DNA of 62,524 bases from an uncultured Collinsella sp. GTDB taxonomy: Bacteria > Actinomycetota > Coriobacteriia > Coriobacteriales > Coriobacteriaceae. Made by a program: the position numbers and the translations under genes. Shown here one piece after another: positions 1-49,920 of the stretch (position 1 is the first letter of the stretch; each line of letters begins with the position of its first letter). The stretch lies in the NCBI GenBank assembly GCA_902479195.1, contig CABSNT010000001.1:1-62524 (forward strand), written 5' to 3'. Under the pieces are notes generated by a model. The model did no database searches. It saw only the letters and a program-made list of their open reading frames with translations, and was not told the DNA's origin.

Positions 1-88
1 GCGACGGGGGCGAGGCGAATGGCTGAGCGGTATCGATACGCGGGTTCAACGGTATCACATTGGCCACATAGATTTTTAACTTGCATTT

Positions 89-838
89 CTACCCGCCCTT
101 TTCGTAGAGTCGCCGATACGTGCTTAGCGCACCCTCGGCGCGTCCGGCAGGCTTTGCGAAATGGGATCCAGGAGACTTCGGCGCAGCATCATCTTGCGGA
201 ATGCTTCTAATGAGCCTCCCATCCTTCAAAAACAGAATCTCATCGCACAGCCTATCGACCGAATCCAAGATGTGGGATGACATGATGATGCACGTACCAG
301 AATCGGCCAGCTTCCTGAGAATCTCGGAATGCAAGTCCACCCTGCTGGGGTCTAGCGCGTTCATGGGCTCATCTAATAGAAGGTACCGCGCACCCGTCGC
401 ATACGCAATCGCCAGGGTAAGCTGCTGCTTCATGCCCTGGCTCAGAGTGCGGATCCTCATCTTCGCGAACTCGCCTATCTGCGTTTGTTCCACTATCTCT
501 TCGATATCGCGAGCATGCGGCCACATATCGCAAACCATCTTGAGGTGATCTTCCGCACGCAATCCGGGATACAGCAGCGTCCCCTCACCAGGTGCATAGA
601 AGATCATAGAACGGACCTCTCTCGCACCCGTACCCTGCACCTCATCCAGAACGATGCTCCCGTCCACGCGAGGACCCGGCAAACCTGCCATCGCACGCAG
701 CAACGTCGTCTTTCCATGCCCGTTCGGAGCGACGAGACCGTAGACCGTACCCGGGGCAAACTCAGCGTTCACCGAATCTACGAGCACCTTCTTTCCATAA
801 GAGATCGTCAGCGTTTGAAGGTCAATCATCGAGATCAT
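89..838 (-). CDS. ABC transporter ATP-binding protein
   Basis: Walker A APNGHGKTT, signature LSQGMKQ, Walker B LLLDEP, H-loop SSH. Confidence 0.92.
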   Translation of the reverse strand: MISMIDLQTLTISYGKKVLVDSVNAEFAPGTVYGLVAPNGHGKTTLLRAMAGLPGPRVDGSIVLDEVQGTGAREVRSMIFYAPGEGTLLYPGLRAEDHLKMVCDMWPHARDIEEIVEQTQIGEFAKMRIRTLSQGMKQQLTLAIAYATGARYLLLDEPMNALDPSRVDLHSEILRKLADSGTCIIMSSHILDSVDRLCDEILFLKDGRLIRSIPQDDAAPKSPGSHFAKPAGRAEGALSTYRRLYEKGG

Positions 839-3075
839 CCCCTTTCGATCTTTGGAACACTCAGGCGCACCATCAACGGAGATACGGCGCCCAAGACCAC
901 CAGCAGAGCGCCCGATGCGCCGACGACCTCTCCAAAAGGCATCGCGTTCGTCCCTCGCCCAAGGAACCCAATCGTCCCCACCTGGGAAGCGGGATCAAAC
1001 GAGGCGAATGGAGCCAGCAGCGCGACGCCCATGCCCACGCTTTCAACATGAGCGCTCAACGAACCCAACACCAAGAGAACCGCGCAAACCATTCCGGTGA
1101 CAACGGGGTTGCGGCTAATCGCTGCTGTCAACGCAGCGACGACGGAAATCACGCCGTATGCCATGACCAGCAACGGAATACTGCACAACACCGCCTCCCC
1201 CACCATGGACGTTGTCGAAGCTCCCGCCCGAATGAGAGCGACGGGATACTCCGATCCACCCGCACCGTTCTTAATCACGGACACAACGACAGCGGGAACC
1301 ATCGACACCAAAAGCAGCACCAAGCCAAGCAGGAGAGCCAGCGCAACAGCCGTCAGAAAACGCACATGCGCTGTTGCGGGGATCTGGAGAACCAGAAGGG
1401 AACGGCACTGCAGGTGGGTGCACGCGAGCGATGTGACAACCACGGGCAACAGCAAAAATAAGGAGGGAAGCGCTGCCTGGAGATACGAAAGGAGGATTAA
1501 TGGGGGCATCTTCGTACTTAACTCGTAAACCTTGGGGTCCGGCAAGCTCGCGATCGACTCAAGCAGAAGGGCGCGCGCCTCCGCACGAGAAGGAGTCTCC
1601 GGCTCGATTCCGATCGATTGCAGGAGAGTCGCATCTGCCGCGCCCAGCTCACCTCGAGCGCGCTCGTACGTCGCAAGGCTTCGAAACCCCTCCGCAGGCA
1701 TAGGCGCGTACACGAAACCCGAAAGAGCATCCCGCATGTCTTCCAGGGCCGCTTTGCCCTCGACGTCCATATTCGCAGCGTTCTGCTCTAGATACCGATC
1801 TATTGAACGGAGCTCCCCATCCCTAAACCGAACAGCGGAAACGTTATCAGCGTCAGGAAACATCTCGACCAGAGCCGGGGCCAGCATCGTCGTCGACATT
1901 GCAATCGCGCATACGGCGAGGGTAGGAGAACGCAGGAGCAGTTTCCCCATCGTTCTTACGTATGCAACGGCGGAGGCACAAGCGCTCGAACGAGTTGCCG
2001 TTCTCGATGCAGTGAAGGAACCTCTCTCAAGACAAATCGGGGATATCGGGCACGCGCAGCCGCTCTTTCCAGCAACGCAAAGCAGGCTAATTGCCAGCAC
2101 CTCGATCCCGATTGCGCATACGAGGGCAATCGCGCCACGCTCGAAGCAAAGTCCAGGCAGATTCACTATCTGCGTTGTCGGGTACGGGCTATAGGCGCCG
2201 ACGGTCAACTCAGTGTTCGCATACGTAAGGGGATTCAACAGGACGAACTCACGTAAAGCGATGGATCTTCCGTAATACCCGGAAACCATCGTCACCCCCA
2301 TCAGGGCACATACGAACACGATTCCAAGCGTAGGGTTATTGGCAATCTTCACGGCAAGGTGAACGACAAGCGAGATGAACGCTGCCACCAAGAATTGCAA
2401 GATGGCCGTCTGCGCGAACACCAGCCAAGCCGGTTTGATAACCGGAGTCGCATATTGAATGTAGCCTATCGGATAGAACGGCGAGCCCGGGCCATTCTTC
2501 ACAAGCGCGGCGATTATCCCTGGAAGATTGATGGCGAGGACGGCAAGCATTGCAAAAACACTCGCCCATACGCTCGATGCAACAAGTCTACCCAGCTCGC
2601 CCATCGGTGCCTGGATGATGAGCTTTTCACGTTTGTTAAGACGCGCGGCAAGGAACGAGACGGCAACGGCCGTTGCGACCCATAGCAAGTACTCCTTCGA
2701 TCCGTCATAATAGGTGTACTCTCCATCCGATATCTGCAGAAACGGAAGTAGGGGAGAGAGCGGTGCCAAGATAAGACGTCCCGCGGCAAGAGGGTACAGA
2801 AGCGCGGGCATGCTTGATGAAGAGGTATAGACACCGTCCTCCCCCGCATTCACAAGCGCATCCGCATAGGATGCTGACAATTCCTGCTCAACACGGGTTA
2901 TTCCCGACTCGAGGTATTCGACCCGTCCGTCGATGCCAGCCGCGCTCCTGAAGACGGGCAGAGCACAAAGAACCATCAACGCAACAACGACAACACAGAG
3001 CGACCTGGAGGAGAGAAGCGACCTAAAGATCGCCTTCGAGATTTTGAGCATATTCATCGCCAACCTTAACCTCAT
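835..3075 (-). CDS. ABC exporter permease with two tandem membrane modules; start uncertain
   Basis: 746-aa hydrophobic ORF with two similar halves (KNGPGSPFYP / KNGAGGSEYP); overlaps the ATPase start by 4 nt. Confidence 0.7.
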   Translation of the reverse strand: MRLRLAMNMLKISKAIFRSLLSSRSLCVVVVALMVLCALPVFRSAAGIDGRVEYLESGITRVEQELSASYADALVNAGEDGVYTSSSSMPALLYPLAAGRLILAPLSPLLPFLQISDGEYTYYDGSKEYLLWVATAVAVSFLAARLNKREKLIIQAPMGELGRLVASSVWASVFAMLAVLAINLPGIIAALVKNGPGSPFYPIGYIQYATPVIKPAWLVFAQTAILQFLVAAFISLVVHLAVKIANNPTLGIVFVCALMGVTMVSGYYGRSIALREFVLLNPLTYANTELTVGAYSPYPTTQIVNLPGLCFERGAIALVCAIGIEVLAISLLCVAGKSGCACPISPICLERGSFTASRTATRSSACASAVAYVRTMGKLLLRSPTLAVCAIAMSTTMLAPALVEMFPDADNVSAVRFRDGELRSIDRYLEQNAANMDVEGKAALEDMRDALSGFVYAPMPAEGFRSLATYERARGELGAADATLLQSIGIEPETPSRAEARALLLESIASLPDPKVYELSTKMPPLILLSYLQAALPSLFLLLPVVVTSLACTHLQCRSLLVLQIPATAHVRFLTAVALALLLGLVLLLVSMVPAVVVSVIKNGAGGSEYPVALIRAGASTTSMVGEAVLCSIPLLVMAYGVISVVAALTAAISRNPVVTGMVCAVLLVLGSLSAHVESVGMGVALLAPFASFDPASQVGTIGFLGRGTNAMPFGEVVGASGALLVVLGAVSPLMVRLSVPKIERG

Positions 3076-3192
3076 CCAGTCGGAACAGAGGGGCCGAACA
3101 AAATGCTCGGCCCTTATTACTTGCCGGCAAAGTCAATTTAACATAAACTGTTAAAAAGTAACCTGAGTTTTTTAAATTCTTCGGAGGTTATT

Positions 3193-3705
3193 ATGAGTTC
3201 CGACAATCGCACTCCCCGGCTTCATTCCTTCCGCATCGCATGTGCGATAGCCTCTGCGACCCTTTGCGCCACCGCCATCGCACAAGTGGCGTTCTCCTTA
3301 AAGCCAGCAATCGAAGTGCTCGACAACCCTGTAATTGCAGACTCCCCCGCGTATCCAGCCCTTGCGATCTCGACATTGGTCCCTGCCGTCATCGGTATCG
3401 CTACGACCATCCTCAGCGCCGTTCTCGTGTGGACGATCAAGAGCGGAGACCCCTTCAAGAAAGGGTCTGCGACATGCTTGAAGGTGCTCGGCATTCTCTT
3501 CGTTGTTCAAGCTGCCACCAGCCTCTACGCCGGCTCACTCAAAACCTCCGTTTCGATGTTTGGCGGCGAGGGGGCCGTCGGCGCCCAAGAGATCGCTTCA
3601 TCATTCGATTGGACCTCTCTGGTTCTCGGCATCGTCCTGTTCATGCTTTCCCAGCTCTTCTTGTACGCCCGAGAGCTGTACCTCGACTCCGACGAGATTG
3701 CGTAA
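3193..3705 (+). CDS. DUF2975-like membrane protein
   Basis: GGAGG RBS; 4 TM segments; 'GDPF' motif and an 'ARELYLDSDEIA' ending typical of DUF2975; followed by an XRE gene. Confidence 0.75.
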   Translation: MSSDNRTPRLHSFRIACAIASATLCATAIAQVAFSLKPAIEVLDNPVIADSPAYPALAISTLVPAVIGIATTILSAVLVWTIKSGDPFKKGSATCLKVLGILFVVQAATSLYAGSLKTSVSMFGGEGAVGAQEIASSFDWTSLVLGIVLFMLSQLFLYARELYLDSDEIA

Positions 3706-3714
3706 GGAAACGCC

Positions 3715-3966
3715 ATGCCCGTAATTGTTCGCCTCGACAAGATCATGGCCGAGCGAAAGATTTCCTCGAACGAACTTGCCGAAAGGATTGGAACCACGCC
3801 CGTGAACCTGTCCCGTATTAAAAAAGGGCATATTCGCGGCATTCGCTTCAACACACTCGAGCAGCTATGCCTCGCCCTTCGTTGCCAACCCGGAGACCTT
3901 CTCGAAGTCATGAGCGAAGAGGATGCCCGAAAGGAGTTCGGACTCGATTGGTCCGCCGAGGATTAG
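3715..3966 (+). CDS. XRE/YozG-family HTH regulator
   Basis: IVRLDKIMAERK...NLSRIKKG...IRFNTLEQLC..L.CQPGDLL. Confidence 0.9.
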   Translation: MPVIVRLDKIMAERKISSNELAERIGTTPVNLSRIKKGHIRGIRFNTLEQLCLALRCQPGDLLEVMSEEDARKEFGLDWSAED

Positions 3967-4692
3967 AGGGCGGTCGTACTCGCCCTGCACACGGGGATGC
4001 GAATCGGCGAGGTCTGCGGCCTTCGGTGGTGCGATGTGGATTTCGAGACGGGCCTGATCTCGATCAGACACTCGGTGGTGTACGCGAAGGGAATGGGTTC
4101 GTTCATCAAGGACACCAAGACCCATGACGCCAGGGGTATCCCCATCGACCCGGTCGGCCTACTCCCCTTCCTGAAGGAGACCCACGAGATCGACTGCGGA
4201 AAGCTGCGCTTGCGCGGCCTTACCGGGGCGGTCGAGATCGGGGACTGCTACATCCTGTCGGAGCCGGGCGCGACCTTCGCGACGACAAGCTATATCCGCA
4301 GGGCGTTCAAGACGTTCTCGGAGACCAACGGCCTCATGGGCACCAACGACGAGCTGATCACGTTCCACGGCCTTCGCCACACGTTCGCAACGCAGTGGAT
4401 CCGCCAAGGCGGCGATATCAAGGCGTTCCAATCGATCCTCGGCCACAAGGACGCCATGGCGACGCTCAACGTCTACGCCGACATCGAGCCCATCTCCAAA
4501 ATCCATAACATGCTGCGCGCCACGCCGTGCCTTTGGCGCGGGCACCTCGGGCCGAGGGTCGATCCGGGTCCCATGTTCCAACAGAGGATCTAGGAGTCCA
4601 TCGAGACGCTCCAGGCGTTCGGCTACGGCATCACCGAGCCGGACGACCGAAATATCGCCATACGCGACGTGAAGATGAACAGTTGGCTCTAG
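3967..4692 (+). pseudogene. Truncated tyrosine recombinase/integrase (catalytic domain only, internal stop)
   Basis: LALHTGMRIGE, FHGLRHTFAT, LGH and VYA motifs; no N-terminal domain; TAG at 4591-4593 followed by 32 further open codons to TAG at 4690-4692. Confidence 0.8.
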
Positions 4693-5088
4693 CTCACCGA
4701 GTACGCGGCAGTGCTGGGCCCATCCCAACTGAGGTCACGGTGGTCCGATAGGGGCGCCGCCCGCGGCATGCGCCGCGGAGCGGTATCCCCTACCGAAGGG
4801 CGGGGATGCCCTCCGCTTCCAGTTCGGAATCAGCCGTCGGAGGCGTTCGGCTGACTGCGGGAACGGCCTGTCCGCTCAATGTGTTCGGCTGAGATCGGAA
4901 ATCAACCCAACACGAGCCGGACACGCGCCAGACGGCTCTTCCCCGTACGGCCTTCCCCCTTACGCTCATGTTGCAGGCATGTAACGCCGCAGCGAGCGCG
5001 CCTTTTTTGCGCCAGACAGGTACAATGATGAACACTGTACCGTAGCGGAGCGCCCCGCGCGCGCCGCAATCACGCGAAAGGGTTTCCC

Positions 5089-6959: not shown

Positions 6960-7802
6960 ATGATTGTGTTTTCCGATATGGATGGAACACTGCTGACGAG
7001 TGATAAGCAGATGAGCGATGCCACCTGGGCGATGCTCGACGAGCTTGCGCGCCGCGGTGTTGAGTTTGTGCCCTGCACGGGGCGCCCGCTGTCGGGTATC
7101 TTTGAGCCCATCCTCGCCCACCCCGCCGTACACTACGCGGTCTGCGCCAACGGTGCCAGCGTCTGGCAGCTCGACGACGGTACGCCCACCGATACTTCAC
7201 GCGCTACGCGCATTTTGAGCCGACCGCTCGACCGCGCCATCGCCCACCGCATCCATAGCATCGCCGCCGGCCACGATGTGACCTTCGATATCTTCGCGGA
7301 CGGGCAGTGCTTCCTCCCCCGCTCGCTCTACACGCGCCTGGACGAATTCTGCGGCGGCGATCCCCACATCGCGGCTTCGCTCAAGCGCACACGAACGCCG
7401 ATCGACATGGATATCGACAGCAAGATCGACGAGGTCGAGACGCTCGAACGCATCGCCATGTACTGGCACGACCCGGTCGATCGCGACGCCATCGCAGCGG
7501 AGCTCGACACGCTCGGGGGCATTGAGGTCACGCGTTCGTACGCCATGAATATCGAGGTCATGGGCGAGGGCGCTACCAAGGGGACGGCCCTCACGTGGCT
7601 GTGCGAGCACCTGGGCGAGCGTCTCGCCGACGCCTGGGCGTTCGGCGACAACATCAACGACATCCCCATGCTGCAGGCAGCGGGACACGGCATGGCCATG
7701 ATCAACGCCGAGCCCGAGGACCGCGACGCCGCCGACGCCATCACCGAGTTCGACAACGACCACGACGGCGTCGCCCGCACCATCATGGCCGCCCTCGCCT
7801 AG
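6960..7802 (+). CDS. Cof-type HAD hydrolase
   Basis: DMDGTLL, CTGR, TKG and FGDNINDIPM motifs. Confidence 0.92.
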   Translation: MIVFSDMDGTLLTSDKQMSDATWAMLDELARRGVEFVPCTGRPLSGIFEPILAHPAVHYAVCANGASVWQLDDGTPTDTSRATRILSRPLDRAIAHRIHSIAAGHDVTFDIFADGQCFLPRSLYTRLDEFCGGDPHIAASLKRTRTPIDMDIDSKIDEVETLERIAMYWHDPVDRDAIAAELDTLGGIEVTRSYAMNIEVMGEGATKGTALTWLCEHLGERLADAWAFGDNINDIPMLQAAGHGMAMINAEPEDRDAADAITEFDNDHDGVARTIMAALA

Positions 7803-7894
7803 TCATTGGGGACGTTCTTAAACGACTAGTCATTGGGGACGTTCTTAAACGACTAGTCACTGGGGACGTTCTTAAATGACTAGTCGTTGGGGAC
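7800..7894. repeat. 27-bp tandem repeat (TAGTCATTGGGGACGTTCTTAAACGAC), about 3.5 copies
   Basis: Copies start at 7800, 7827, 7854, with a partial copy at 7881; lies between convergent genes. Confidence 0.9.
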
Positions 7895-7964
7895 ACTCTT
7901 CGCGAAAAAGCTGCAAGGACTGTCCCCGGTTGCCGGCAGAAAAGGAACGTCCCTAACTGCCGGA

Positions 7965-8759
7965 TTAGGCGAGGCTCTCCAGAACACGGCGGAGCTCCTG
8001 CTGGACAGCGTGGTCGCGGTTACGACCCACCACGCTATCGGCCACCGCCTTGAGCGCGGGGCGCGCGTTTTCCATCGCGCAGCCCGTGCCGACAAAGCGA
8101 ATAATCTCATAGTCGTTCATCGAGTCGCCAAACGCCATGACCTCGTCGCGCCCAATGTCGTAATGCTCCGCGAGCTGCGCGATACCCGAGGCCTTCGACA
8201 CACCAGGCTGCATGGCATCAATCCACGCGTTGCCCGAAGGCGCAAAGGTAAAGAGCTGACCAAGTTCGCGCTGCAGTACGTAGGCGCTGTCCATAACGGC
8301 ACCGTCATCGCAAAAGATACTCGCCTTGATGATATTTACGCTGGGATCGGGCAGCTCCCAAATGCGCTCGGCATTGGGAAGGTCCTTATCGACCTCGCGC
8401 ACGAACTTGCACTCGTCATCGAGCAGGAAGGACTTGGTTCGGTCAAAAAGCGCAAGATGCAGATTGGGAAACGTCGCGACGGCCTGGGCGAGCCTTCGAA
8501 TCGCCAGGTGCGAATACACCTCGCGGTCTACCATTTTGCCGTCGGCGTAGACCTGGGCACCGTTAGCTGCGACAAAGTCCATCTTGTCGCGAACGGGCGC
8601 AAAGAACTCGCACAGGCGATCGTAGCGGCGGCCTGACGATGCGGCAAAATGCACGCCATGCTCGCGTAGCGCCAAAATCAGTTCGTAGGTCTCGGGAGGC
8701 ACCTGGCCGTTTTCGTCAAGCAGCGTGCCGTCCATATCGGATGCAATCAGTTTAAACAT
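7965..8759 (-). CDS. Cof-type HAD hydrolase
   Basis: DMDGTLL, SSGR, SKASG and FGDSMND motifs. Confidence 0.92.
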   Translation of the reverse strand: MFKLIASDMDGTLLDENGQVPPETYELILALREHGVHFAASSGRRYDRLCEFFAPVRDKMDFVAANGAQVYADGKMVDREVYSHLAIRRLAQAVATFPNLHLALFDRTKSFLLDDECKFVREVDKDLPNAERIWELPDPSVNIIKASIFCDDGAVMDSAYVLQRELGQLFTFAPSGNAWIDAMQPGVSKASGIAQLAEHYDIGRDEVMAFGDSMNDYEIIRFVGTGCAMENARPALKAVADSVVGRNRDHAVQQELRRVLESLA

Positions 8760-10751: not shown

Positions 10752-10936
10752 ACATACTCCTTTAACCGTAGAAAACAGCTGCGGAGCGGACGGGCCTTCA
10801 CCGCAGCAAGCTAATAGCCATTGTATGCCCAAACGATGGGCCAACAATACGCCCCTCCGCTTAACGGCACACGCCGCTCAGCGCAATGGGGGCAGGTTAC
10901 TTTGCACCAATGGCAAGGAGTGTCCCAAAGTGCCGG

Positions 10937-10984
10937 CACAAAAGGAACGTCCCCAAGTGCCACAAAAGGAACGTCCCCAAGTGC
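10937..10984. repeat. 24-bp tandem duplication (CACAAAAGGAACGTCCCCAAGTGC x2), same family as the 7800 repeat
   Basis: Exact copies at 10937 and 10961; reverse complement contains TTGGGGACGTTC. Confidence 0.85.
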
Positions 10985-11051
10985 CAACAACGGAAGCGCC
11001 GATGTTTTGGCATCGCCAGCGAGCGGGTCGCATTTGAGACAAGGTGTCGTG

Positions 11052-40907: not shown

Positions 40908-40977
40908 CGGGAGCTGAAGGCGGCCGCAGGATCCCGCATCCAGCGCCGGCTTCTAAGTGCTGTTTTGTCATCCAGCC

Positions 40978-41054
40978 ACACTTTTCCGAAGTTTTAAGGT
41001 GCCTATTTCGACACTTTTCCGTACTTTTACACGGCTGATTTCGACACTTTTCCG
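40978..41054. repeat. Three direct repeats ACACTTTTCCG at 33-bp period
   Basis: Copies at 40978, 41011 and 41044. Confidence 0.8.
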
Positions 41055-41287
41055 GATGAAAGCCGAATAATCACTTGGGAAACCAGCGCCATCCGCGCGT
41101 CATTTCGCGGATGGCGCTTGATTTCTGTCCGTACACGTTGAGTCCGTACACGTTGATAGACTTCCTCTTGCCCGCAAGGAGCGGGCACGTTTTATCCAGA
41201 GTCGGGGTAGAGAGTTGGCTCCACGATCCCGACGCCAACCGGCCAAAAGGCACGGTGGCCCTGCCAACATCGATGAAAGGAGTCCGT

Positions 41288-41710
41288 ATGGACAATTTCT
41301 CTGTGCGCAGCGAGCGCAACTTCCACAACCTGGCAGCCAAGCCAAAACGAATGCATCTTCTGGACAAGCAGAACGGCTACGCCTCGGCCATGGTCAAGAG
41401 CAGCCTCTCCCACCAGATGCGCTTCACGGTGCAAAAGCTCGAGAAAGAGTTCTGCGTTGCCGGCGACCCGCATGTGTTGCAGATCAAACTGTCCGGAGAC
41501 GATTCGCGTGAGCCGTCTAGCTGGGAGCGGTTTGCCGATGGCGCGTGCGTTGCGGGCGGGTCGGGCATCTTTGCCCGCGAGTGCTTCTGCGAGGGCGCCG
41601 AGGTATTCCTGGATCTGTGCCGCGACGCCGTACGCGCGGCCGAGCTGCGGCAGTGGAGCGAAAGGGAGTACGAGCTGTTGAGTGCGGCCCGCGGGATTGC
41701 GATGGTGTAG
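41288..41710 (+). CDS. Hypothetical protein (140 aa)
   Basis: AAAGGAG RBS before the ATG; high GC3. Confidence 0.65.
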   Translation: MDNFSVRSERNFHNLAAKPKRMHLLDKQNGYASAMVKSSLSHQMRFTVQKLEKEFCVAGDPHVLQIKLSGDDSREPSSWERFADGACVAGGSGIFARECFCEGAEVFLDLCRDAVRAAELRQWSEREYELLSAARGIAMV

Positions 41711-41820
41711 GCAGACAGACCAGACAGCTCGTCATACTGGTTGACGCTTCGATTCAAACAGCAGTGCGAAGTCGCGCTTACAGCCCTGCCATGCCAAACC
41801 GAATGGCGTTCTCAAAAGGC

Positions 41821-42555
41821 CTACCTCCCCTCCGCCTTCAGCCTCAGCAGCAGGTCGCCCAGCTCGGGGCACTTGCTGGAAAGGCGCGTCTGGGCTCGCT
41901 CGCCCACCCCCCACCGCTGGCGGACTTCCTGGACGTGCGGGCTCACGCGGTAGCCCCCATCCATCACCTGCTTGAGCAGCTTGGCGGTCACGCGCGCATC
42001 GGCTAAGGCGCTGTGGGCGTGACCCGTCGACTCGTCGAACTCGATGCCAAACCACGTTGCCGCGTCACTCAAAGAGACGCACCCGTGGCTGCCCACGTCC
42101 ATGATCGAAGTGTAAAACGCCTGCAGGTCGGCCCAGTCCGTAGGAAATGCGGAAAGGTCCATGTGCTTTGCCTGGCACTCGGTCATAAGCTGTCGATGAT
42201 CCGCCCCGCTCCAGCAAACTATCTGGGCGGAGTAGCGACCGATCCAATCGCTGAGTCTTTTGATCACCACATAGAGCGGATCAGCCATCGCGGTGTCCAC
42301 GGCCGATATCCCCGTAAGCTCGCGGACGGGAAACGCAACGCCTTCGGTAAATTCCGTCTGCACAAACTGCGAGAACTCACCCATAACGTTGCCGTGGTAA
42401 TCGAGCTTGACGGCGCCGACCTCGATAATCTCGTTGCGCAGTCCACGACGCTGGCGCTGCTTTGGCACCGGCGCAAACTCAAAGTCCAGCACAATCTGGC
42501 GCGCAAAGTTCGTCGTATCGATAGCCGAGATACACGGCGTCTTTTCAGCTGACAC
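41821..42555 (-). CDS. DEDDh 3'-5' exonuclease
   Basis: ExoI LDFEF, ExoII WSGAD, ExoIII HSALADA; GTG start with GAAAGG RBS. Confidence 0.85.
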   Translation of the reverse strand: MSAEKTPCISAIDTTNFARQIVLDFEFAPVPKQRQRRGLRNEIIEVGAVKLDYHGNVMGEFSQFVQTEFTEGVAFPVRELTGISAVDTAMADPLYVVIKRLSDWIGRYSAQIVCWSGADHRQLMTECQAKHMDLSAFPTDWADLQAFYTSIMDVGSHGCVSLSDAATWFGIEFDESTGHAHSALADARVTAKLLKQVMDGGYRVSPHVQEVRQRWGVGERAQTRLSSKCPELGDLLLRLKAEGR

Positions 42556-43128
42556 GGTTATGGCCTTTCTCCGTCGCCTGCCGCCTGCTACATAGCTACA
42601 TAAGCGGCTACATTGCCGTAAGGATAGGCGCCCGTGCGGACATGAAGGCGGGACGCAATGCCACGCGCGCCAGGCACACGCCATGTAGACCGCCCCAAGA
42701 GAGTCGCCCGCTCTACTCAAATGCATGAAAAAGTTTAGGCCCGGTGACTTGAATCAGCGGTCATCCCGGGCCCATCAGAGCTCACAGAGCTCTTGGTTGC
42801 TTTGGTCTCGCTCTTCACGGCGCTTATCGAACTTTCCGAGGCACTCAAGCAGCATTCGAAGCATAACAAGTCACTGCCATTAAGGCGCTGACCTCTTGAC
42901 CAAGCAACGGCGCTGCCCAGCTCTTCACCACTTGGGCTGCCGTCGACTTTATTCTATCCGCGAGCATCTGGTTTACCAAATGGATTTTCGGTAAAGGAAG
43001 CACGGCACGCCCGCAAAACCACTACGCCCCAAGTGCCGCCATGGGGATCACCGCCACGCCGTCGTCGTGTGTGCAGGCAATGCTTCCCTTTCCAACCACA
43101 ACCGCCAAAAACGCCGGCGCGGTATTCT

Positions 43129-43424
43129 AAGACGCGCTTTCCACTTGAAGCCATGTCGATTCTGGGACACAGTTTCCGCTTGAAGCCCATCCGGAAAGCA
43201 CGTCCCATTCCGAGGCTTGAATCCGGGACGCAGTTTCCACTTGAGCTCCTGACGGGAAAGCACGTCCCACTCTGAAGCTCGATTCCGGAATACAGCTTCC
43301 GCCAGAGACCTCAACCGGAAACGGCATCCCACTCTGGAGCCAGAATCCGGGACGCATCTTCCTCTTGAGGACCGATCCGGAAAGTGCGTCCCAGTCTGAG
43401 CGCTCATTCCGGGATGCAATTTCC
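43129..43424. repeat. Array A: 62-bp-period alternating inverted 14-mers
   Basis: GGGACRCAGTTTCC-type at 43164/43225/43287/43349/43411; GGAAAGYRCGTCCC-type at 43193/43255/43317/43379. Confidence 0.9.
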
Positions 43425-43506
43425 GCTGGCAGCCAGTACGACAACAGAGGGCCCCGTTCCAGCCATTCGAGGACAGGCTTTACCCCCGAGCAGCGTTATC
43501 CCGCCC

Positions 43507-44886
43507 TCACATCTCGGCAAACGAGATCAGCTTGACGTCTCCCCTATTCTCCGCGGCATCCCGACATCCCTGCGTAAAGCCGCTTTTTGAGAAAAGTGCA
43601 TAGCTTTTTCGTTGCCGTCTAAAGAGCTCGCTTCGGTGCACGAGCTTTTGCAGCACGTCTTCGCCCGCCGGTTCATTGCGCCATTTGCACTCCGCAAACA
43701 GCGCAGCGCCCTCGCCATCGTCAACAATCAAGTCGATTTCTTCCTGCGTATGCGTGCGATTATCCGTCCCCCACCAGCGCCCGACACTCGCCGGAACCAC
43801 ATCGAGCTGGCCCGCGCGCGCGAGTTCGTACACGTATTGTCTGCATATAATCTCAAAGACCGTACCCATGTAATCCGATACGTGCGGCTCAATGCGCTCA
43901 TACGCCATCTCGGCCATATCGTTTTGAATCAGCCCGATGTTCTGCGGCACAAACTTGTACCAGAACCTAAACATCTGATCGCTCAGCAGATACACGGCTC
44001 GCTTATTGCTCGTCTCGTTTAGGGGCAGCTCGCGCTCGACAATCCCAAGCGACGCCAGCTTATCCACATAGCTCTTTACGTTGCTCGCAGGGATTCCCGT
44101 AGAGCTCGCAATCTCCGAGATCTTCGAGCGCCCCTGAGCAATTGCTTGCACGATCGCATCATATTGCTCGGGATTGCGGCACTCCTGCAATAGCAGGTTA
44201 CTCGGCTCCTCAAAGAGATAGCCCGTAGGAGTAAGAAAAAGACGTTTGATGTTGTCCTTGAGCGGTGCGGCAGGATCGACTTTCTCGATATATGCAGGAA
44301 TGCCGCCCGTCATGCCATAGCAAACCGCAGCATCTTCGCGACCCATGCTCTGCCACAGGCCGAGGGTCGTCGTAAAATCGAGCGGCATGATCTTAAACTG
44401 GGCCGTACGCCTACCGTATAGCGGACTCTCGTAGCCCAACACCTGCTCTTCCATAAACGAAAGCGACGACCCGCACAGGATAAGCATAAGCTTGGTCTCT
44501 TTGTACAAGTGATCGATCTTGTCTTGCAGCAACGAGCTGATCTCGGGATTCGATTGGGCGAGATAAGGATACTCGTCGATCACGACAATCAAACGTTCCG
44601 TGCGAGCCATGGTAGCCAATGCATCGAACGCCTCGTCAAAACTACGAAACGACACGCCTGCAGCACCAACCGAACCCGCGAGTATCGCCTGGCTAAAGCC
44701 GTGCAGGTTTGCCTCCGCATTGGTACGACGAGCTTGAAAGTAAATAGCCTTCTTGCCTTGGATGAACTCTGTGATAAGGCGCGTTTTACCCACACGACGG
44801 CGGCCGTAAATCACAGGCATCTCAAAGGAGCCCGTGCCATACAGTCGATTGAGCTCGGACGTTTCCGCTGTTCTTCCGATAAACAT
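43507..44886 (-). CDS. AAA ATPase (ATPase_2 type) + wHTH + DUF234 PD-(D/E)XK domain
   Basis: MFIGR..E, YGRRRVGKT, IDEYPY, GGIPAY and EEIDLIV...FAECKW motifs. Confidence 0.9.
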   Translation of the reverse strand: MFIGRTAETSELNRLYGTGSFEMPVIYGRRRVGKTRLITEFIQGKKAIYFQARRTNAEANLHGFSQAILAGSVGAAGVSFRSFDEAFDALATMARTERLIVVIDEYPYLAQSNPEISSLLQDKIDHLYKETKLMLILCGSSLSFMEEQVLGYESPLYGRRTAQFKIMPLDFTTTLGLWQSMGREDAAVCYGMTGGIPAYIEKVDPAAPLKDNIKRLFLTPTGYLFEEPSNLLLQECRNPEQYDAIVQAIAQGRSKISEIASSTGIPASNVKSYVDKLASLGIVERELPLNETSNKRAVYLLSDQMFRFWYKFVPQNIGLIQNDMAEMAYERIEPHVSDYMGTVFEIICRQYVYELARAGQLDVVPASVGRWWGTDNRTHTQEEIDLIVDDGEGAALFAECKWRNEPAGEDVLQKLVHRSELFRRQRKSYALFSKSGFTQGCRDAAENRGDVKLISFAEM

Positions 44887-44901
44887 AGGGCCATCCTTCC
44901 C

Positions 44902-44957
44902 TTACGTTATAGCTAGCTATATTATACCTTCCTATAATATAGCTAGCTATAACGTAA
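44902..44957. promoter_or_regulatory. Perfect 25-bp inverted repeat carrying divergent TATAAT hexamers
   Basis: TTACGTTATAGCTAGCTATATTATA-CCTTCC-TATAATATAGCTAGCTATAACGTAA. Confidence 0.75.
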
Positions 44958-45011
44958 TTCGACAAGCGGCGCACGCAAAAGGGCGGTATACCACCGCACG
45001 TGAACCGTTCC

Positions 45012-45366
45012 GGAAAATGTATCCCGTTCTGGAGCCAAAAACTGGGCCGTAGTTTCCGCCAAACATGCCATCCGGAAAGCGCGTCCCGTTCTGAGCCTGA
45101 ATTCTGGGATGCATTTTCCGCTGAAGCTTCTACCGGAAAATGCTTCCCATTCTGAGGCTTGAATCCGGGACGCAGCTTCCGCTTGAAGGCCGACCCGGAA
45201 AGTGCGTCCCAGTCTGAGCGCTCATTCCGGGATGCAGTTTCCGTTTGAGGCCCGATCTGGAAACGGCATCCCGCTCTGGGACCGAAATCTGGGACACAGT
45301 TTCCGGTTGAGGGCTGTTCCGGAAAGCGCGTCCCATTCCAAGCGGCGATTCCGGGTCACAGCTTCC
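45012..45366. repeat. Array B: 62-bp-period alternating inverted 14-mers
   Basis: R units at 45012/45074/45135/45197/45259/45321; F units at 45044/45106/45167/45229/45291/45353. Confidence 0.9.
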
Positions 45367-45661
45367 GCCGGCACAGACGACGATCCGCCGCCTTTATCAC
45401 ATGCCTTCAAATATGCGATCCAGAAACACAAAACAGCAGATAGAATGCTCTTTTTCAAAAAGTACACGTCCCGAAACTTACCAAGGTTTCATATCTAGCT
45501 ACCGTTCACGGTCGCCGATTACCGCCCACCGATTCAAACAAGAAATATGTCGCCAAAAGCAGGTCATCTACCTGCATGGTTAGATTTTGGTCAGCTTTTG
45601 GTCAGCTGAGCGGCAAGTTCCAGCTGATACGTTTTTGCTACCCAAAAGGAGGCGGTAGCTC

Positions 45662-46660
45662 ATGACCCATTGCAATGACCAGCTCATCGACCAACTGCTC
45701 ACTCAAGCCGAACAAGAGGGGCGCTGTCTGATTCCCCCGAGCACGGCGATCCGAAAAGCGCTCCTTCGGCGCACCGGCGGCACGGTTGTCTCGCCCATGC
45801 CGGGGTTGTTTGCGCGAAAAACGCGCTGGGATGAACTCAACCGAGCGCAACGCCATTGCGAGATTATCCGCGCCCTTGCGATCATCCATCCCGATTGGAC
45901 GTTCTGCTCGTTTTCGGCAGCTTGCCTGCTGGGGCTCGAGGTCTCGTGGCGGCACCTGAACGTCGTGCATGTTTGCAGCTCGACAAAGCCGTCGGCTCGT
46001 CCGGGCTCACATATTCAGCGGCACCAGATCGAGCCGGCCGGAGCAATACGCAGAGCCGGCATATCGGTAACGCCGCCCATCCAAACGGTCACAGATTGCC
46101 TGCTGCAAACTGGTTTTGCCGACGGCATGCCCATTGCCGATTCGGCGATCTTAAAGCTCGGCCTTGCACGGGAACAGCTGATGGAGGCCGTTGAGCAACG
46201 AGCGACTGCCCGCAATGGTCGCGCAATTCGCACCGCCCTCACAACGCTTCGATATGCCGACGCCCGCGCCGAGAGCGGCGGGGAATCGGTCGCCCGAGCC
46301 GTCATGATCGAGACGGGCTTTGCGCCCGACTGGCTTCAATACGAGCTGACGGACCCCTTCGATTCGGCCAAGCCCATACGAACGGACTTTGCCTGGGAGC
46401 GCCAGGCGCGGGAACTCACGCTGGGCGAGCTCGACGGGCTCATCAAATATACCGACCAGACCATGCTGGCCGGACGCACCACCGCCGAGGCGCTCGTTGC
46501 CGAACGACAGCGCGAGGCGCACCTATCGCTCTACGGCCACCCTCTGCTGCGCTTTACCATGAACGAGGTCCGCTCGGCAGGAATGCTCGCCAAAAAGCTG
46601 CAGACGGCAGGCATCCGGCAGACCGCGCTGCCGACATGGCTCAACGAGGTGGACCTGTAG
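45662..46660 (+). CDS. AbiEi-like N-terminus + DUF559/Vsr-like nuclease-fold C-terminus
   Basis: FCSFSAACLLGL, VTPPIQTVTD, AESGGES..R, RTDFAW, GELDG..KY and ERQRE..L..G..LLR motifs; GGAGG RBS. Confidence 0.75.
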   Translation: MTHCNDQLIDQLLTQAEQEGRCLIPPSTAIRKALLRRTGGTVVSPMPGLFARKTRWDELNRAQRHCEIIRALAIIHPDWTFCSFSAACLLGLEVSWRHLNVVHVCSSTKPSARPGSHIQRHQIEPAGAIRRAGISVTPPIQTVTDCLLQTGFADGMPIADSAILKLGLAREQLMEAVEQRATARNGRAIRTALTTLRYADARAESGGESVARAVMIETGFAPDWLQYELTDPFDSAKPIRTDFAWERQARELTLGELDGLIKYTDQTMLAGRTTAEALVAERQREAHLSLYGHPLLRFTMNEVRSAGMLAKKLQTAGIRQTALPTWLNEVDL

Positions 46661-46703
46661 GAGCTGTTAGGCCAAGCATCGCCGAATCGCATTCCCCCTA
46701 TCT

Positions 46704-47026
46704 GGGCCGCGTTTTCCCAACGGCCACGCCAACGGAAAGCGCGTCCCAGCCTGGACGCTCAAAACGGGACGCACTTTCCGGATGGCGGGCCTGGCGGAAA
46801 GCGTGTCCCGGAATCAGGTCTCGGAACGGGTCGTGCTTTCCGGTTGAGTCCTTCAGCGGAAACCGCATCCCGGAATAAACGCTCAAACTGGGATGCACTT
46901 TCCAAACGGCCGGCCAGCGGAAAACACATCCCATTCTGAGGCACGATTCCGGGACGCAGTTTCCGCATGCGGCCCCGTTGGGAAAGTTCATCCCGTTCCG
47001 GGGCTGGATTCCGGGACGCAGCTTCC
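46704..47026. repeat. Array C: 62-bp-period alternating inverted 14-mers
   Basis: F units at 46704/46766/46828/46890/46951/47013; R units at 46734/46796/46858/46919/46981. Confidence 0.9.
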
Positions 47027-47047
47027 GCATGCGGAGGCGCTCCAAAC

Positions 47048-47079
47048 AAAAGGCCCCGGCTCGCGATGGAGCTGGGGCC
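47048..47079 (-). terminator. Intrinsic terminator after xdh
   Basis: GGCCCCAGCTC..GAGCCGGGGCC-TTTT on the minus strand. Confidence 0.7.
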
Positions 47080-47142
47080 AAAGGCGCAGCATATGCAGTT
47101 GGTGTTGAACGCGGACAGCCCATCGCAATGGCCGTCCGCACC

Positions 47143-49920
47143 CTACCCGCGGTGACGGGCGCGACTGTACGGGGTATCCACCATGGGCAGATCCGGACGC
47201 AGCTTGCCGTCAAATGCGCGGTAGGCATTCTGCACGGCAGGCGCTGTGGGGATCGTTGCGATCTCGCCGATGCCCTTGCCGCCGTATGCCACGGGCAGCA
47301 GCTCGTCCTTTTCCACGTAGATGGCATGGATATCCGGAATCTCGGGCGCGCGGAACAGCCCGAGCGTACCGTACCTTGCCTGGGGCACGCAGTCCTTGAG
47401 CGGCCAGTCCTCGGTAAGCGCATAGCCCATACCCATGAGCACGCCGCCTTCGATCTGACCCTGGATGGAGATGGGGTTGACCACCTTGCCGGAATCATGC
47501 GCGGCATAGACCTCGCTCACGCGGCCGTCATCGTCCAAAATGACCACATGCGTGGCAAAGCCGTAGCAGATGTGGCTCTTGGGGTTGGGAACGTCGGCGC
47601 CCAGTTTGTCGGTCGGCTCCAAGTACACGTAGCCAAACTCGCATCCCTCGAGTGCCTTGATGGCGGCCACAGGATCCTGAGGATGCATACCCTGGCCGGC
47701 GACGAGCTCCTGCGTGTGCAGCTGATAGGCGCGACCGTCGTCGTACTCGATCTTGACGCCGTCGCCATGCGCATTCACGGGAGCGGCGGGCGCAGACTTG
47801 CCGGCCTCGATGTCAAGCATGGCATCGCGCAGCAGGAAGGCGGCACCGCGCACGGCCTCGCCGGTCACGACCGTCTGACGCGAACCAGACGTGGTGCCGG
47901 AGTCGGGAGCGTTCTCGGTGGAGCACTCGCCGTTGGCAATGCAACGAAGCGGCAGGCCACATGCCTCGGCAACGTCCTGCAAAAAGACGGTGTTGCAGCC
48001 CTGGCCGATGTCGGACGTGGCGGCATAGACCACGGCGCGGCCATCCTCGATGCGAATCTTGCAGCGGCCGGCATCGGGCAGGCCCACGCCCACGCCGGCA
48101 TTCTTCATGGCGCAGGCGATACCGGCGTGTCCGGGATGCGCGTAGTAGGCATCCTTGACCTCGAGCAGCGTCTCCTTAAGCGCCGTGGAGCAGTCGGCGA
48201 TCTGGCCGTTGGGCAGAACCTCGCCCGGCTCGATGGCATTACGGTAACGAATCTCCCACGGGTCCAGGCCGACCTTCTCTGCCAGCAAGTCGATCAGGCT
48301 CTCGAGCGCAAACTCGGACTGGCAAACGCCAAAGCCGCGGTACGCGCCGGCGGGCGGGTTGTTGGTGTAGTAGCCAAAACCGCGAATGTCGGTGTTCTGG
48401 TACTTGTAGGGGCCGACGGCATGCGTGCAGGCGCGCTCGAGCACCGGGCCGCACAGCGACGCGTAGGCGCCGGTGTCAAAGTTGATCTCGCAGTCCAGAC
48501 CGGTAAAGTTGCCCTCGGCGTCGCAGCCCAGCGTAAAGGTACCGTCCATGGCATGGCGCTTGGGATGGAACGCGAGCGACTCGGCACGCGTGAGCTTGCA
48601 CTTCACGGGACGCTGGAACTTATATGCGGCGAGCGCGGCCAGATGCTGGATGGACACGTCCTCCTTGCCGCCAAAGCCGCCACCCACAAGCATGGTCTCG
48701 ACGACCACACGCTCGGGTTCGTTGTCCCAGCCAAACATATGGGCGCACTCTTTGCGCGTGTCGTAGGCACCCTGGTCGGTCGACTGCACCTTGACGCCAT
48801 TCTTGTACGGGAAGGCGACGGCGCACTCGGGCTCCAAGAAGGCATGCTCGGTAAAGGGCGTGGTAAAGCGCTGCGTCACGGTAAACGCGCTCTCCGCCAG
48901 CGCCTTGGCGGCGTCGCCGCGCGTCACGTGACGGCTCTGGCACACGTTGTCCTTGAGCTCCACCGTGTTGCCGAAGGCAAAGAAGCTGTCGTGCAGGCGC
49001 GGGGCGTCGGCAGCCCTGGCCTCGACAATGTTGCGCACGGGCTCCAGCGGCTCGTAATCGATCTTTACGAGCTTCTTGGCCTTCTCGAGTGTCGCTTCGT
49101 CCTCGGCGACCACCAGCACGATGGCGTCACCCACGCAGCGGGTGATATCGCCCTGGGCGATCATGACATCCCAGTCCTGGATAAGGTGGCCGACCTGGTT
49201 GACCGGCACGTCCTCGGCGCGCAGGATGCCCACCACACCGGGCAGGGCCTCGGCCTTGGAGGTGTCGATGGAGAGCACACGGGCGCGCGGATACTTGGAG
49301 CGCACGGCGCTGGCATAGGTCAGGCCCGGCTGATCGAGCTCGTCGATGTCGTCGGGATACTTGCCCTCGCCGAGCACCTTCTTGCGCACGTCAATACGGA
49401 AGGCGCGCTTGCCCACGCCGTAGTCATCGCCGCGCTCCAGGTCCTCGTCGATCTGCTTTTCGCCGCGGAGCACCGCAGCGGCCAGCGAGATGCCCTCGAT
49501 AATCTTTTTGTAGCCGGTGCAGCGGCAAACGTTACCGCGAATGGCGTACTTAATCTGCTCCTCGGTGGGCTCGGGGTCCTCGGCGATGAGCGCTGCGCCC
49601 GCCATGACCATGCCGGGAATGCAAAAGCCGCACTGCACGGCGCCCACGGCGCCAAAGGCGTACACAAAGGCCTCGCGCACGTCCTCGGGCAGGCCCTCGA
49701 CGGTCACGATGTTGCGACCGGCGGCAAGAGCGGTGGTCAGCACGCACGCCTTGACGGCCGCACCGTCCACATGGATGGTGCAGGTGCCGCACGCGCCCTC
49801 GGAGCAGCCGTCCTTGGCGGAATGGATATGCAGGTCGTCGCGCAGGTAGCGCAGCAGCGGTTTGTTTTGGGTCGTCGTGCGCTCGACGCCGTTAACGGTA
49901 AAAGTGAATTCCTGTGCCAT
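47143..49920 (-). CDS. xdh: Selenium-dependent xanthine dehydrogenase-family Mo-hydroxylase (2Fe-2S + Mo domains)
   Basis: GCSEGACGTC, QCGFC, CRCTGY, GGGFGGK, AYRGFG and KGIGE motifs. Confidence 0.92.
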   Translation of the reverse strand: MAQEFTFTVNGVERTTTQNKPLLRYLRDDLHIHSAKDGCSEGACGTCTIHVDGAAVKACVLTTALAAGRNIVTVEGLPEDVREAFVYAFGAVGAVQCGFCIPGMVMAGAALIAEDPEPTEEQIKYAIRGNVCRCTGYKKIIEGISLAAAVLRGEKQIDEDLERGDDYGVGKRAFRIDVRKKVLGEGKYPDDIDELDQPGLTYASAVRSKYPRARVLSIDTSKAEALPGVVGILRAEDVPVNQVGHLIQDWDVMIAQGDITRCVGDAIVLVVAEDEATLEKAKKLVKIDYEPLEPVRNIVEARAADAPRLHDSFFAFGNTVELKDNVCQSRHVTRGDAAKALAESAFTVTQRFTTPFTEHAFLEPECAVAFPYKNGVKVQSTDQGAYDTRKECAHMFGWDNEPERVVVETMLVGGGFGGKEDVSIQHLAALAAYKFQRPVKCKLTRAESLAFHPKRHAMDGTFTLGCDAEGNFTGLDCEINFDTGAYASLCGPVLERACTHAVGPYKYQNTDIRGFGYYTNNPPAGAYRGFGVCQSEFALESLIDLLAEKVGLDPWEIRYRNAIEPGEVLPNGQIADCSTALKETLLEVKDAYYAHPGHAGIACAMKNAGVGVGLPDAGRCKIRIEDGRAVVYAATSDIGQGCNTVFLQDVAEACGLPLRCIANGECSTENAPDSGTTSGSRQTVVTGEAVRGAAFLLRDAMLDIEAGKSAPAAPVNAHGDGVKIEYDDGRAYQLHTQELVAGQGMHPQDPVAAIKALEGCEFGYVYLEPTDKLGADVPNPKSHICYGFATHVVILDDDGRVSEVYAAHDSGKVVNPISIQGQIEGGVLMGMGYALTEDWPLKDCVPQARYGTLGLFRAPEIPDIHAIYVEKDELLPVAYGGKGIGEIATIPTAPAVQNAYRAFDGKLRPDLPMVDTPYSRARHRG

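Follow-up and report, generated by a model that had tools for sequence, protein, structure and literature searches.

A Collinsella-wide family of inverted intergenic repeats, with three arrays around exchangeable genes beside xdh

A stretch of 62,524 nucleotides from an uncultured Collinsella species (contig CABSNT010000001.1; hereafter the window) harbors three arrays of short inverted repeats, designated A, B, and C, which alternate with a gene for an ATPase and a gene for a 332-amino-acid (332-aa) protein. Collinsella is an abundant and extremely species-rich genus of the gut. Comparison across genomes shows that these arrays are the local members of an intergenic repeat family interspersed throughout Collinsella, a family that is low in copy number, confined to arrays, and vertically inherited, and that they are independent of the two genes. 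The family is probably a genus-specific counterpart of the repetitive extragenic palindromic (REP) sequences and bacterial interspersed mosaic elements (BIMEs), or of the mycobacterial interspersed repetitive units (MIRUs), with arrays that would offer DNA sites to a protein and also form a seam for rearrangement. A preliminary description of this DNA had proposed a repeat-associated nuclease module built on the two genes. That proposal does not hold, since both genes are absent from 78 of the 80 listed array loci with 2-kb flanks (tblastn with the window proteins), and the remaining cases belong to one syntenic locus.

The region is laid out as follows.

Array A: 43129-43424, unstranded; 10 alternating 14-nt arms, those at 43129 and 43287 degenerate; 62-bp period.
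ATPase gene: 43507-44886, minus strand; 459 aa, with ATPase_2, a winged helix-turn-helix, and DUF234 (Pfam); a low-GC accessory gene.
Array B: 45012-45366, unstranded; 12 arms.
332-aa gene: 45662-46660, plus strand; large actinobacterial family; N-terminal part weakly similar to AbiEi, C-terminal part bearing the DUF559/Vsr-like motif VDF ... GELDG..KY ... RF.
Array C: 46704-47026, unstranded; 11 arms; 18-nt linkers in mixed orientation.
Shared segment: 43343-43425 in array A, unstranded; 92.8% identical to 45161-45243 in array B, so that direct repeats lie on both sides of the ATPase cassette.

Fuzzy matching detects 33 alternating 14-nt arms in the three arrays, close to the 'about 32' first counted, and the order of arrays and genes, the spacing, and the period given in the preliminary description are all confirmed. 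The arms are of two alternating types, F (GGGACGCAGTTTCC-like) and R (GGAAAGCRCGTCCC-like), separated by 15-16 nt from F to R and by 18 nt from R to F, and Tandem Repeats Finder returns a 62-bp period for arrays A and B. This density far exceeds chance: the window holds 30 matches to the 14-mer at no more than three mismatches against 7.1 ± 2.7 in shuffled sequence (0 of 100 shuffles reach 30), and the dimer patterns yield 12 and 16 matches where none are expected. All good matches of the motif lie within 43129-47026, as do the 34 window matches to a profile of the 46-bp module described below (nhmmer), every one of which falls inside 43131-47026. Pfam searches of 50 open reading frames (ORFs) in the window detect no REP-associated tyrosine transposase (RAYT), Cas, or Nop family, in keeping with the preliminary description. 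At the gathering score, Rfam has no family for the arrays, the sole match in the window being an S-adenosylmethionine (SAM) riboswitch elsewhere, and a permissive Rfam scan of 42700-47300 gives only chance microRNA-like matches.

The same arrays are dispersed throughout the genus. Species-representative genomes were scanned with a pattern consisting of an R arm, 17-19 nt, and an F arm, and the resulting loci were labelled with L-numbers. The scan recovered at least 124 array stretches from at least 110 assemblies. Names among the matches listed are almost all Collinsella, together with a few Coriobacteriaceae, four entries labelled 'uncultured bacterium', and one 'Ruminococcus' bin, and the arrays in these matches contain from 2 to 19 arms. 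The 83 arrays in 80 listed loci occupy 57 distinct flank-pair contexts, as judged by crude ORF calling and clustering. Their neighbors are unrelated to one another and include genes for a sulfatase, an fn3 protein, a patatin, GGDEF, ArsC, GyrI-like, and flavodoxin proteins, and a CLC channel, as well as PknB, components of the phosphotransferase system (PTS), FBPase, homoserine dehydrogenase, and hisG. No transposase, integrase, Cas, or Nop family is found among 124 flank ORFs (55 + 69 representatives) of the listed loci, and neither a conserved flank nor a target duplication surrounds the listed arrays, many of which sit at contig ends of fragmented metagenome bins. Orthologous arrays recur at corresponding intergenic sites in many species. 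There is a clear preference for the downstream side of genes: 104 of 154 array-facing gene ends among the listed loci are 3′ ends, and the 71 listed arrays with an ORF called on both sides lie between convergent (29), tandem (38), or divergent (4) pairs. The accessible main texts on palindromic or tandem intergenic repeats of Collinsella yielded no earlier description of these arrays.

Neither gene accompanies the family. Among the listed loci, the ATPase finds matches only at L069/L070 (one contig, 97% identical, with the same three-array layout) and L103, and the 332-aa protein only at L069/L070, L094, and L117. The four other assemblies that carry either gene beside an array represent one syntenic locus, which adjoins xdh or a homologue of window 42788-43022. 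A family profile and phmmer, run against six-frame translations, disclose no distant relatives of either gene beside the other listed arrays, and elsewhere two arrays bracket other gene pairs in the same manner (L028/L029 and L037/L038). The co-occurrence analysis suggested in the preliminary description thus finds the arrays scattered without enrichment near these gene families, which is largely the outcome that it had named as telling against a module. Its own caveat, that linkers recurring between arrays favor a dispersed repeat family, proved well placed, given the 92.8% identity of the A and B segments and the dispersal of the arrays.

An independent view of the locus is provided by a long C. 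aerofaciens sequence. BLAST of array B against a plasmid collection returns a single record, NZ_OY725717.1 (899,693 bp), labelled 'Collinsella aerofaciens TSDC17.2-1.1 plasmid 6'. This record (L126-L143) is a piece of chromosome filed as a plasmid: its genes include recA, rpoB/C, the majority of the ribosomal protein operons, and numerous tRNA synthetase genes. The module profile locates five arrays in its 899,693 bp, or about one per 180 kb, a density that comes from this one record. These are the following.

426860-427029: array between a hypothetical gene (left) and ArsC (right), a convergent pair.
496212-496371: array between an IS3 transposase (left) and the 3′ end of xdh (right).
560394-560563: array between feoB (left) and the 3′ end of a hydrolase gene (right).
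691166-691273: array between a GyrI-like gene (left) and an MGMT gene (right), a convergent pair.
856662-856769: array between hisG (left) and the 3′ end of a sugar-phosphate isomerase gene (right).

In the annotation of the record, all five face at least one gene 3′ end, with two in convergent, three in tandem, and none in divergent settings. All nine strict modules of the record lie inside its five arrays, and bare motifs outside them number 2 and 4, in line with the 3.0 and 4.0 that base composition predicts by chance.

The window is collinear with this record from position 4950 to its end (record 452011-511902, about 95% identity), excepting the following island and its contents, which are given here with the conserved gene on its right.

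Variable island relative to C. aerofaciens TSDC17.2-1.1: 40910-46944, unstranded; right breakpoint inside array C.
Exonuclease gene: 41821-42726, minus strand; 301-aa 3′-5′ exonuclease of the RNase_T family (Pfam); island cargo.
xdh, selenium-dependent xanthine dehydrogenase: 47143-49920, minus strand; conserved right flank, with its 3′ end facing array C.

Homology with the record restarts within array C (window 46888/46945), and the xdh-side array of C. aerofaciens TSDC17.2-1.1 is the orthologue of the last units of array C. In place of the window's island genes, the record has an AAA_14-DUF4143 ATPase, a pair of AbiEi/AbiEii fragments, IS21, and IS3. Neither the ATPase nor the exonuclease of the window has a counterpart anywhere in the 900 kb of NZ_OY725717.1, and the 332-aa protein has no orthologue there; a 38%-identical paralogue at 412 kb lies more than 13 kb from the nearest array. 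The array at the 3′ end of xdh is thus a conserved feature, because the collinear record keeps it while lacking the island genes. The ATPase, exonuclease, and 332-aa genes are cargo that can be exchanged within a variable island, and array C contains the right edge of that island. Because most listed arrays lack both the ATPase and 332-aa genes, and because the collinear record retains its array without them, these genes are not partners of the arrays.

The architecture of the family is uniform. Two inverted arms, GGAAA-N5-TCCC and GGGA-N5-TTTCC, with 18 nt between them in that order, make up a basic module of 46 bp, and modules are strung 15-16 bp apart to give the 62-bp period. Neighboring arms across the listed loci form 286 F-15/16-R and 373 R-18-F pairs. 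The R-18-F pair is taken as the module and the 15/16-nt stretch as its joiner because arrays end mostly in F arms (outward ends among the listed loci: F 150 times, R 69 times). Within the arms of the listed loci, positions 1-3 and 10-14 are about 99% conserved and position 4 about 86%, while positions 5-9 vary, mostly by transitions. The linkers have consensuses of their own, roughly RYTYYGAGSSYNRATTCY and GSTTGRGGSSCSTTKS. The 18-nt linker keeps one orientation in 40 of 85 listed arrays and is mixed in 45, mostly with a single switch, several of the mixed cases being the same orthologous array. The arrays are also contiguous, with 677 regular neighbor pairs against 8 single-slot gaps in the listed set.

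The units are old, and their variable positions are almost saturated with changes. Between nearest units of the listed loci, the median distance is 11-12 of the 46 positions. Pairs that differ at three or fewer positions are absent from 346 nearest comparisons within arrays and number just 1 among 57 comparisons across arrays within one genome. The single close cross-array pair is the segment common to A and B, and arrays from different loci are typically 70-75% identical. Orthologous arrays, by comparison, remain close: array C is 98% identical to its equivalent in L094 and 94% to that in L069/L070. Copy number changes in steps of a whole unit. The nearest relative (L069/L070) has 6 arms where array B has 12, which amounts to three 62-bp units, and 4 where array A has about 10; in the sulfatase/fn3 context, arm counts among the listed loci run from 4 to 12.

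A second intergenic repeat family is present in the window at 7799-7966 and 10903-10990, with the core GGGGACGTTC / GGAACGTCCCC, which resembles a shortened 14-nt arm. It is built of 27-bp direct repeats (3.6 copies) followed by an inverted copy, and of 24-bp repeats. Copies occur right beside F/R arrays in L009, L014, L023, L074, L084, L106, and L108. In the collinear C. aerofaciens record, 7802-7933 is missing and an IS110-family insertion (458120-459232) occupies the place of window 10904-11036.

Among known repeats, the REP sequences, BIMEs, and REP doublets forming hairpins (REPINs) of E. coli offer the nearest likeness: they too are extragenic, pair a short motif with its inverted copy through two classes of fixed-length linker, gather in arrays, lie mostly on the downstream side of genes, and occur in a narrow lineage only. 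The analogy to BIMEs drawn in the preliminary description is borne out, as the arrays are mosaics of alternating inverted arms with two distinct classes of fixed-length linker. REP units carry an unpaired GTAG or CGTC tag at one end (PMC3733652), and the word Actinobacteria does not occur in the accessible parts of two papers on REPs (PMC3733652; PMC6006769). The tag is absent here: arms start with GGG or GGA, and CGTC is found solely at an internal position, in about half of them; of 226 arms of the listed loci, 116 have C at position 5 and 109 have T. Further differences from REPs are that the 14-nt arm is not itself palindromic, palindromy residing in modules of 44-46 bp, that one record contains only some five arrays per 0.9 Mb and no solitary copies, and that near-identical copies at different loci are not seen. 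Nor does a RAYT-like partner appear: no Y1 transposase is seen among the 50 window or 124 flank ORFs, and no copy of the motif comes within 400 bp of either of the two identical IS200/IS605 tnpA genes of the 900-kb record. MIRUs and their variable-number tandem repeats (VNTRs) are tandem intergenic units of some tens of base pairs at a few dozen loci in an actinobacterial host. MIRUs themselves repeat in direct orientation and often extend short reading frames between the genes of an operon. The Collinsella arrays share with MIRU-VNTR an actinobacterial host, dispersed tandem intergenic units, and whole-unit copy variation; they differ from MIRUs in their inverted arms, in a 62-bp period that is not a multiple of 3, and in linkers that flip within arrays.

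What the arrays do can be approached through the pattern of conservation. Recognition by a sequence-specific factor is the most economical account, because the short blocks and their spacing are fixed while the rest has drifted, and because what is invariant is the sequence itself rather than its pairing. The block centers lie about 9.5, 30.5, 40, and 62 bp apart, close to about 1, 3, 4, and 6 helical turns, and would thus place the GGGA, TTTCC, GGAAA, and TCCC blocks on one face of the duplex, because the spacings are near whole turns. E. coli BIMEs offer sites to gyrase and integration host factor (IHF). By the same token, the arrays may be phased, sequence-specific DNA sites coated by a putative Collinsella protein, or cruciform-prone DNA, a proposal that we infer from sequence and hold tentatively. 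Arrays would gain and lose units through slippage or unequal exchange; homology between units would account for these whole-unit changes and probably for local rearrangement. The same homology could make arrays seams at which cassettes such as the low-GC ATPase gene are inserted or swapped, and the IS3 that abuts the orthologous xdh-side array in C. aerofaciens TSDC17.2-1.1 fits this idea. A more ambitious version, in which the arrays are protein-binding platforms and recombination seams that would anchor variable islands and capture defence or accessory cassettes, is unlikely on the present sequences.

There are hints that arrays often border variable segments. An MmeI-family gene (L035:2709-4106) lies about 0.5 kb from an array, and Abi_2 genes (L032:1151-1774; L059:326-949) abut or overlap one; both observations fit a seam. 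An AAA_14-DUF4143 ATPase (L046:3-941) is found about 1 kb from an array, and arrays in the PTS-IID/DUF956 context border different sequence on their far side from species to species (L020, L035, L057).

Several considerations weigh against the DNA-site and seam interpretation. Array B folds far better than its shuffles (z = -7.4 and -5.8 for the two strands), an excess that arises because any inverted repeat must fold well. The bias toward gene 3′ ends would suit RNA hairpins as well, and the invariant blocks are complementary, so that short stems are possible and invariant pairs carry no covariation signal either way. The helical phasing is arithmetic on spacings, and the seam idea draws on one island boundary and one duplicated segment. 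The survey, too, has its slant: the scan pattern needed one well-kept module per locus, the unit finder allowed up to three mismatches, and ORFs of the scanned loci were called crudely, as the longest non-overlapping frames.

These considerations give some room to a function at the RNA level, in which the arrays, as REP-like elements, would be co-transcribed with the upstream gene, and their stacked hairpins would shield the mRNA 3′ end from exonucleases or aid termination. The preference for gene 3′ ends (104/154 listed; 5/5 in the annotated record), the folding of array B, and the 4-5-bp stems available to the invariant blocks speak for it. Covariation does not. The arm pairs at position 5 (CG, TG, CA, and TA at 60, 64, 54, and 44) follow independence; RNAalifold on 145 modules finds 0 compensatory pairs and a covariation term of -0.01, retaining only the invariant outer pairs; and arm pairing in these modules (85.9%) is scarcely above that of shuffled arms (85.3 ± 0.4; 58 of 500 shuffles as high). 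Mutual information is confined to neighboring columns, and wobble pairs are no commoner on either strand (201 versus 199 and 266 versus 257). Array orientation has no significant tie to the upstream gene (18-nt linkers co-oriented in 66 cases and opposed in 45, p = 0.057, with loci that are not independent), and the 18-nt linkers flip in 45 of 85 listed arrays. Moreover, the stems are invariant in sequence, beyond what pairing alone would ask, and no T-run follows the hairpins. We therefore give this, the main alternative, a minority share, well behind recognition as DNA. A different possibility is that the arrays are functionless relics of an extinct miniature mobile element that persist because deletion is slow. 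The lack of recent copying, the near saturation of the variable positions, and the absence, in the scanned loci, of a transposase beside the arrays, of target duplications, and of a conserved flank would all be expected of relics. Yet the motif blocks and their spacing are about 99% kept where neighboring positions drifted, decayed units almost never interrupt arrays (677 regular pairs versus 8 gaps in the listed loci), and orthologous arrays persist in many species, which makes mere survival improbable. A minus-strand RNA bias suggested by the window alone is gone in the larger sample, where G-U and A-C pairs are balanced.

The two remaining explanations would assign the arrays to a dedicated system. 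In one, the arrays and the two nuclease-like genes form a single functional module in which the arrays would be binding platforms, sources of RNA, or carriers of the genes, possibly with the 332-aa protein in the role of a RAYT. Its appeal lies in the array on each side of the 332-aa gene in the window, L069/L070, and L094/L095, in the downstream array between this gene and xdh in L117 (1140 bases covered), in the invariant D...E..K motif of the protein, and in the restriction to Collinsella, as far as the searches reached, of both the arrays and the orthologues of the gene (86% identity or higher). However, all gene-array cases trace to one syntenic locus and most listed arrays lack both genes; the C. 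aerofaciens record has arrays without an orthologue in 900 kb and a 38% paralogue without a nearby array; other gene pairs are bracketed likewise; and the repeats upstream of the 332-aa gene, TTTTGGTCAGC, are unlike the array motif. A module of this kind is very improbable. Still less credible is the idea, raised in the preliminary description, that the arrays are a source of guide RNAs, with linker cores acting as spacers. TIGR (tandem interspaced guide RNA) arrays consist of alternating 8-12-nt repeats and 9-nt spacers in 36-nt units next to a Nop-domain gene, according to the accessible part of their description (PMC12045711). The resemblance, two alternating repeats and two short linkers per unit, is superficial: the Collinsella units measure 62 nt, with inverted arms of 14 nt and linkers of 15/16 and 18 nt that share a consensus, and no Nop match occurs in the scanned ORFs. 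Clustered regularly interspaced short palindromic repeats (CRISPR) likewise differ, having direct repeats, unique spacers, and cas genes, as here the repeats are inverted, the linkers conserved, and cas genes lacking in the window ORFs scanned; the 124 flank ORFs scanned are equally free of Nop and Cas families. Arrays reside at many housekeeping loci, and orthologous ones are 94-98% identical between assemblies. Array B, searched as a whole, has no match in a phage collection, and in the plasmid collection it matches only NZ_OY725717.1. The arrays are neither TIGR nor CRISPR.

The family has several implications. Invariant short blocks and spacing amid drift point to a putative sequence-specific partner, and whole-unit variation at orthologous sites could serve strain typing. 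If the arrays are indeed seams of islands, they would help locate accessory and defence genes in fragmented metagenome bins. More generally, a genome-wide control should precede any interpretation of gene-bracketing repeats as a gene-repeat system.

The cargo genes and their surroundings merit separate description, for which two further features are needed.

Inverted repeat: 44902-44957, unstranded; AT-rich, with perfect 25-nt arms around a gap of 6 nt, immediately upstream of the ATPase start, where it overlaps a promoter-like site.
Leader/promoter region of the 332-aa gene: 45367-45661, plus strand; conserved, with direct repeats TTTTGGTCAGC at 45577-45607.

The domain labels first given to the ATPase stand. 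Its Pfam matches have E-values of 1.2e-27 (ATPase_2) and 2.3e-23 (DUF234), accompanied by a weak Mrr_cat match, and in PADLOC a nearly full-length match to the defence candidate PDC-S27 has an E-value of 8.9e-62. PDC-S27 belongs to the predicted single-gene defence candidates, most of which await validation, as stated in the accessible part of the source (PMC12988326). The two share the ATPase_2 and DUF234 architecture; nothing links PDC-S27 to repeats. The GC content of the ATPase gene is 51-57%, compared with 62-67% in its flanks. Its relatives form a continuous gradient of identity from 97% to 50%, and the few named sources are Collinsella, Coriobacteriales, Lachnospiraceae, and Peptococcaceae. 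Together, these features draw the picture of a patchily distributed accessory gene, as far as sequence comparison can tell. The inverted repeat at 44902-44957, kept at 89% in L069/L070, may be an operator, a candidate target of the ATPase protein's own winged helix.

For the 332-aa protein, the labels AbiEi/DUF559-like and PD-(D/E)XK fold found weak support. The protein itself has no Pfam match even at an E-value of 10 and no NCBIfam match, and a profile search of the PDB returned nothing usable. It belongs to a family of 3668 representative clusters at E ≤ 0.001, in which Collinsella orthologues are at least 86% identical and the next relatives at most 49%. An alignment of 45 family members has D242, E256, and K262 invariant within 'RVDF.W ... 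GELDG..KY'. An AbiEi affinity is suggested faintly by AbiEi_4 matches in 2 of the 45 members, a PADLOC AbiEi match (E 0.0014), and Atlas cluster names that are automatic, and no AbiEii nucleotidyltransferase neighbors the gene, its neighbors being the arrays, the ATPase gene, and xdh. Against E. coli YcjD (DUF559), hhalign gives an E-value of 0.0082 and a probability of 4.9%, in register over DF, ELDG, and RF. The protein may thus be called AbiEi/DUF559-like, weakly. The 296 bp upstream of its gene exceed both adjoining arrays in conservation between assemblies, with a mean column identity of 90% (window, L069, and L095, the last of which ends at about window 45602), and probably constitute a long leader or regulatory region. 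The direct repeats TTTTGGTCAGC within it differ from the array motif.

The left part of the island holds several smaller features. The segment 40978-41719 is the only island part common to the C. aerofaciens record (84.7% identity), and it contains the SAM riboswitch (Rfam RF00162; 41189-41279), which scores 45.7 bits versus a gathering score of 44.4 and lies ahead of a small gene. Also within this shared segment, just inside the left edge of the island, is a 33-bp tandem repeat (40978-41054; 2.3 copies, 84% matches). At the far end of the window, positions 1-4949 are unmatched at the corresponding place of the C. aerofaciens record, synteny beginning at 4950. This stretch encodes an ABC ATPase, a 746-aa ORF without a Pfam match, and a truncated ORF of the phage integrase family (3997-4593), and it looks like a second variable region.

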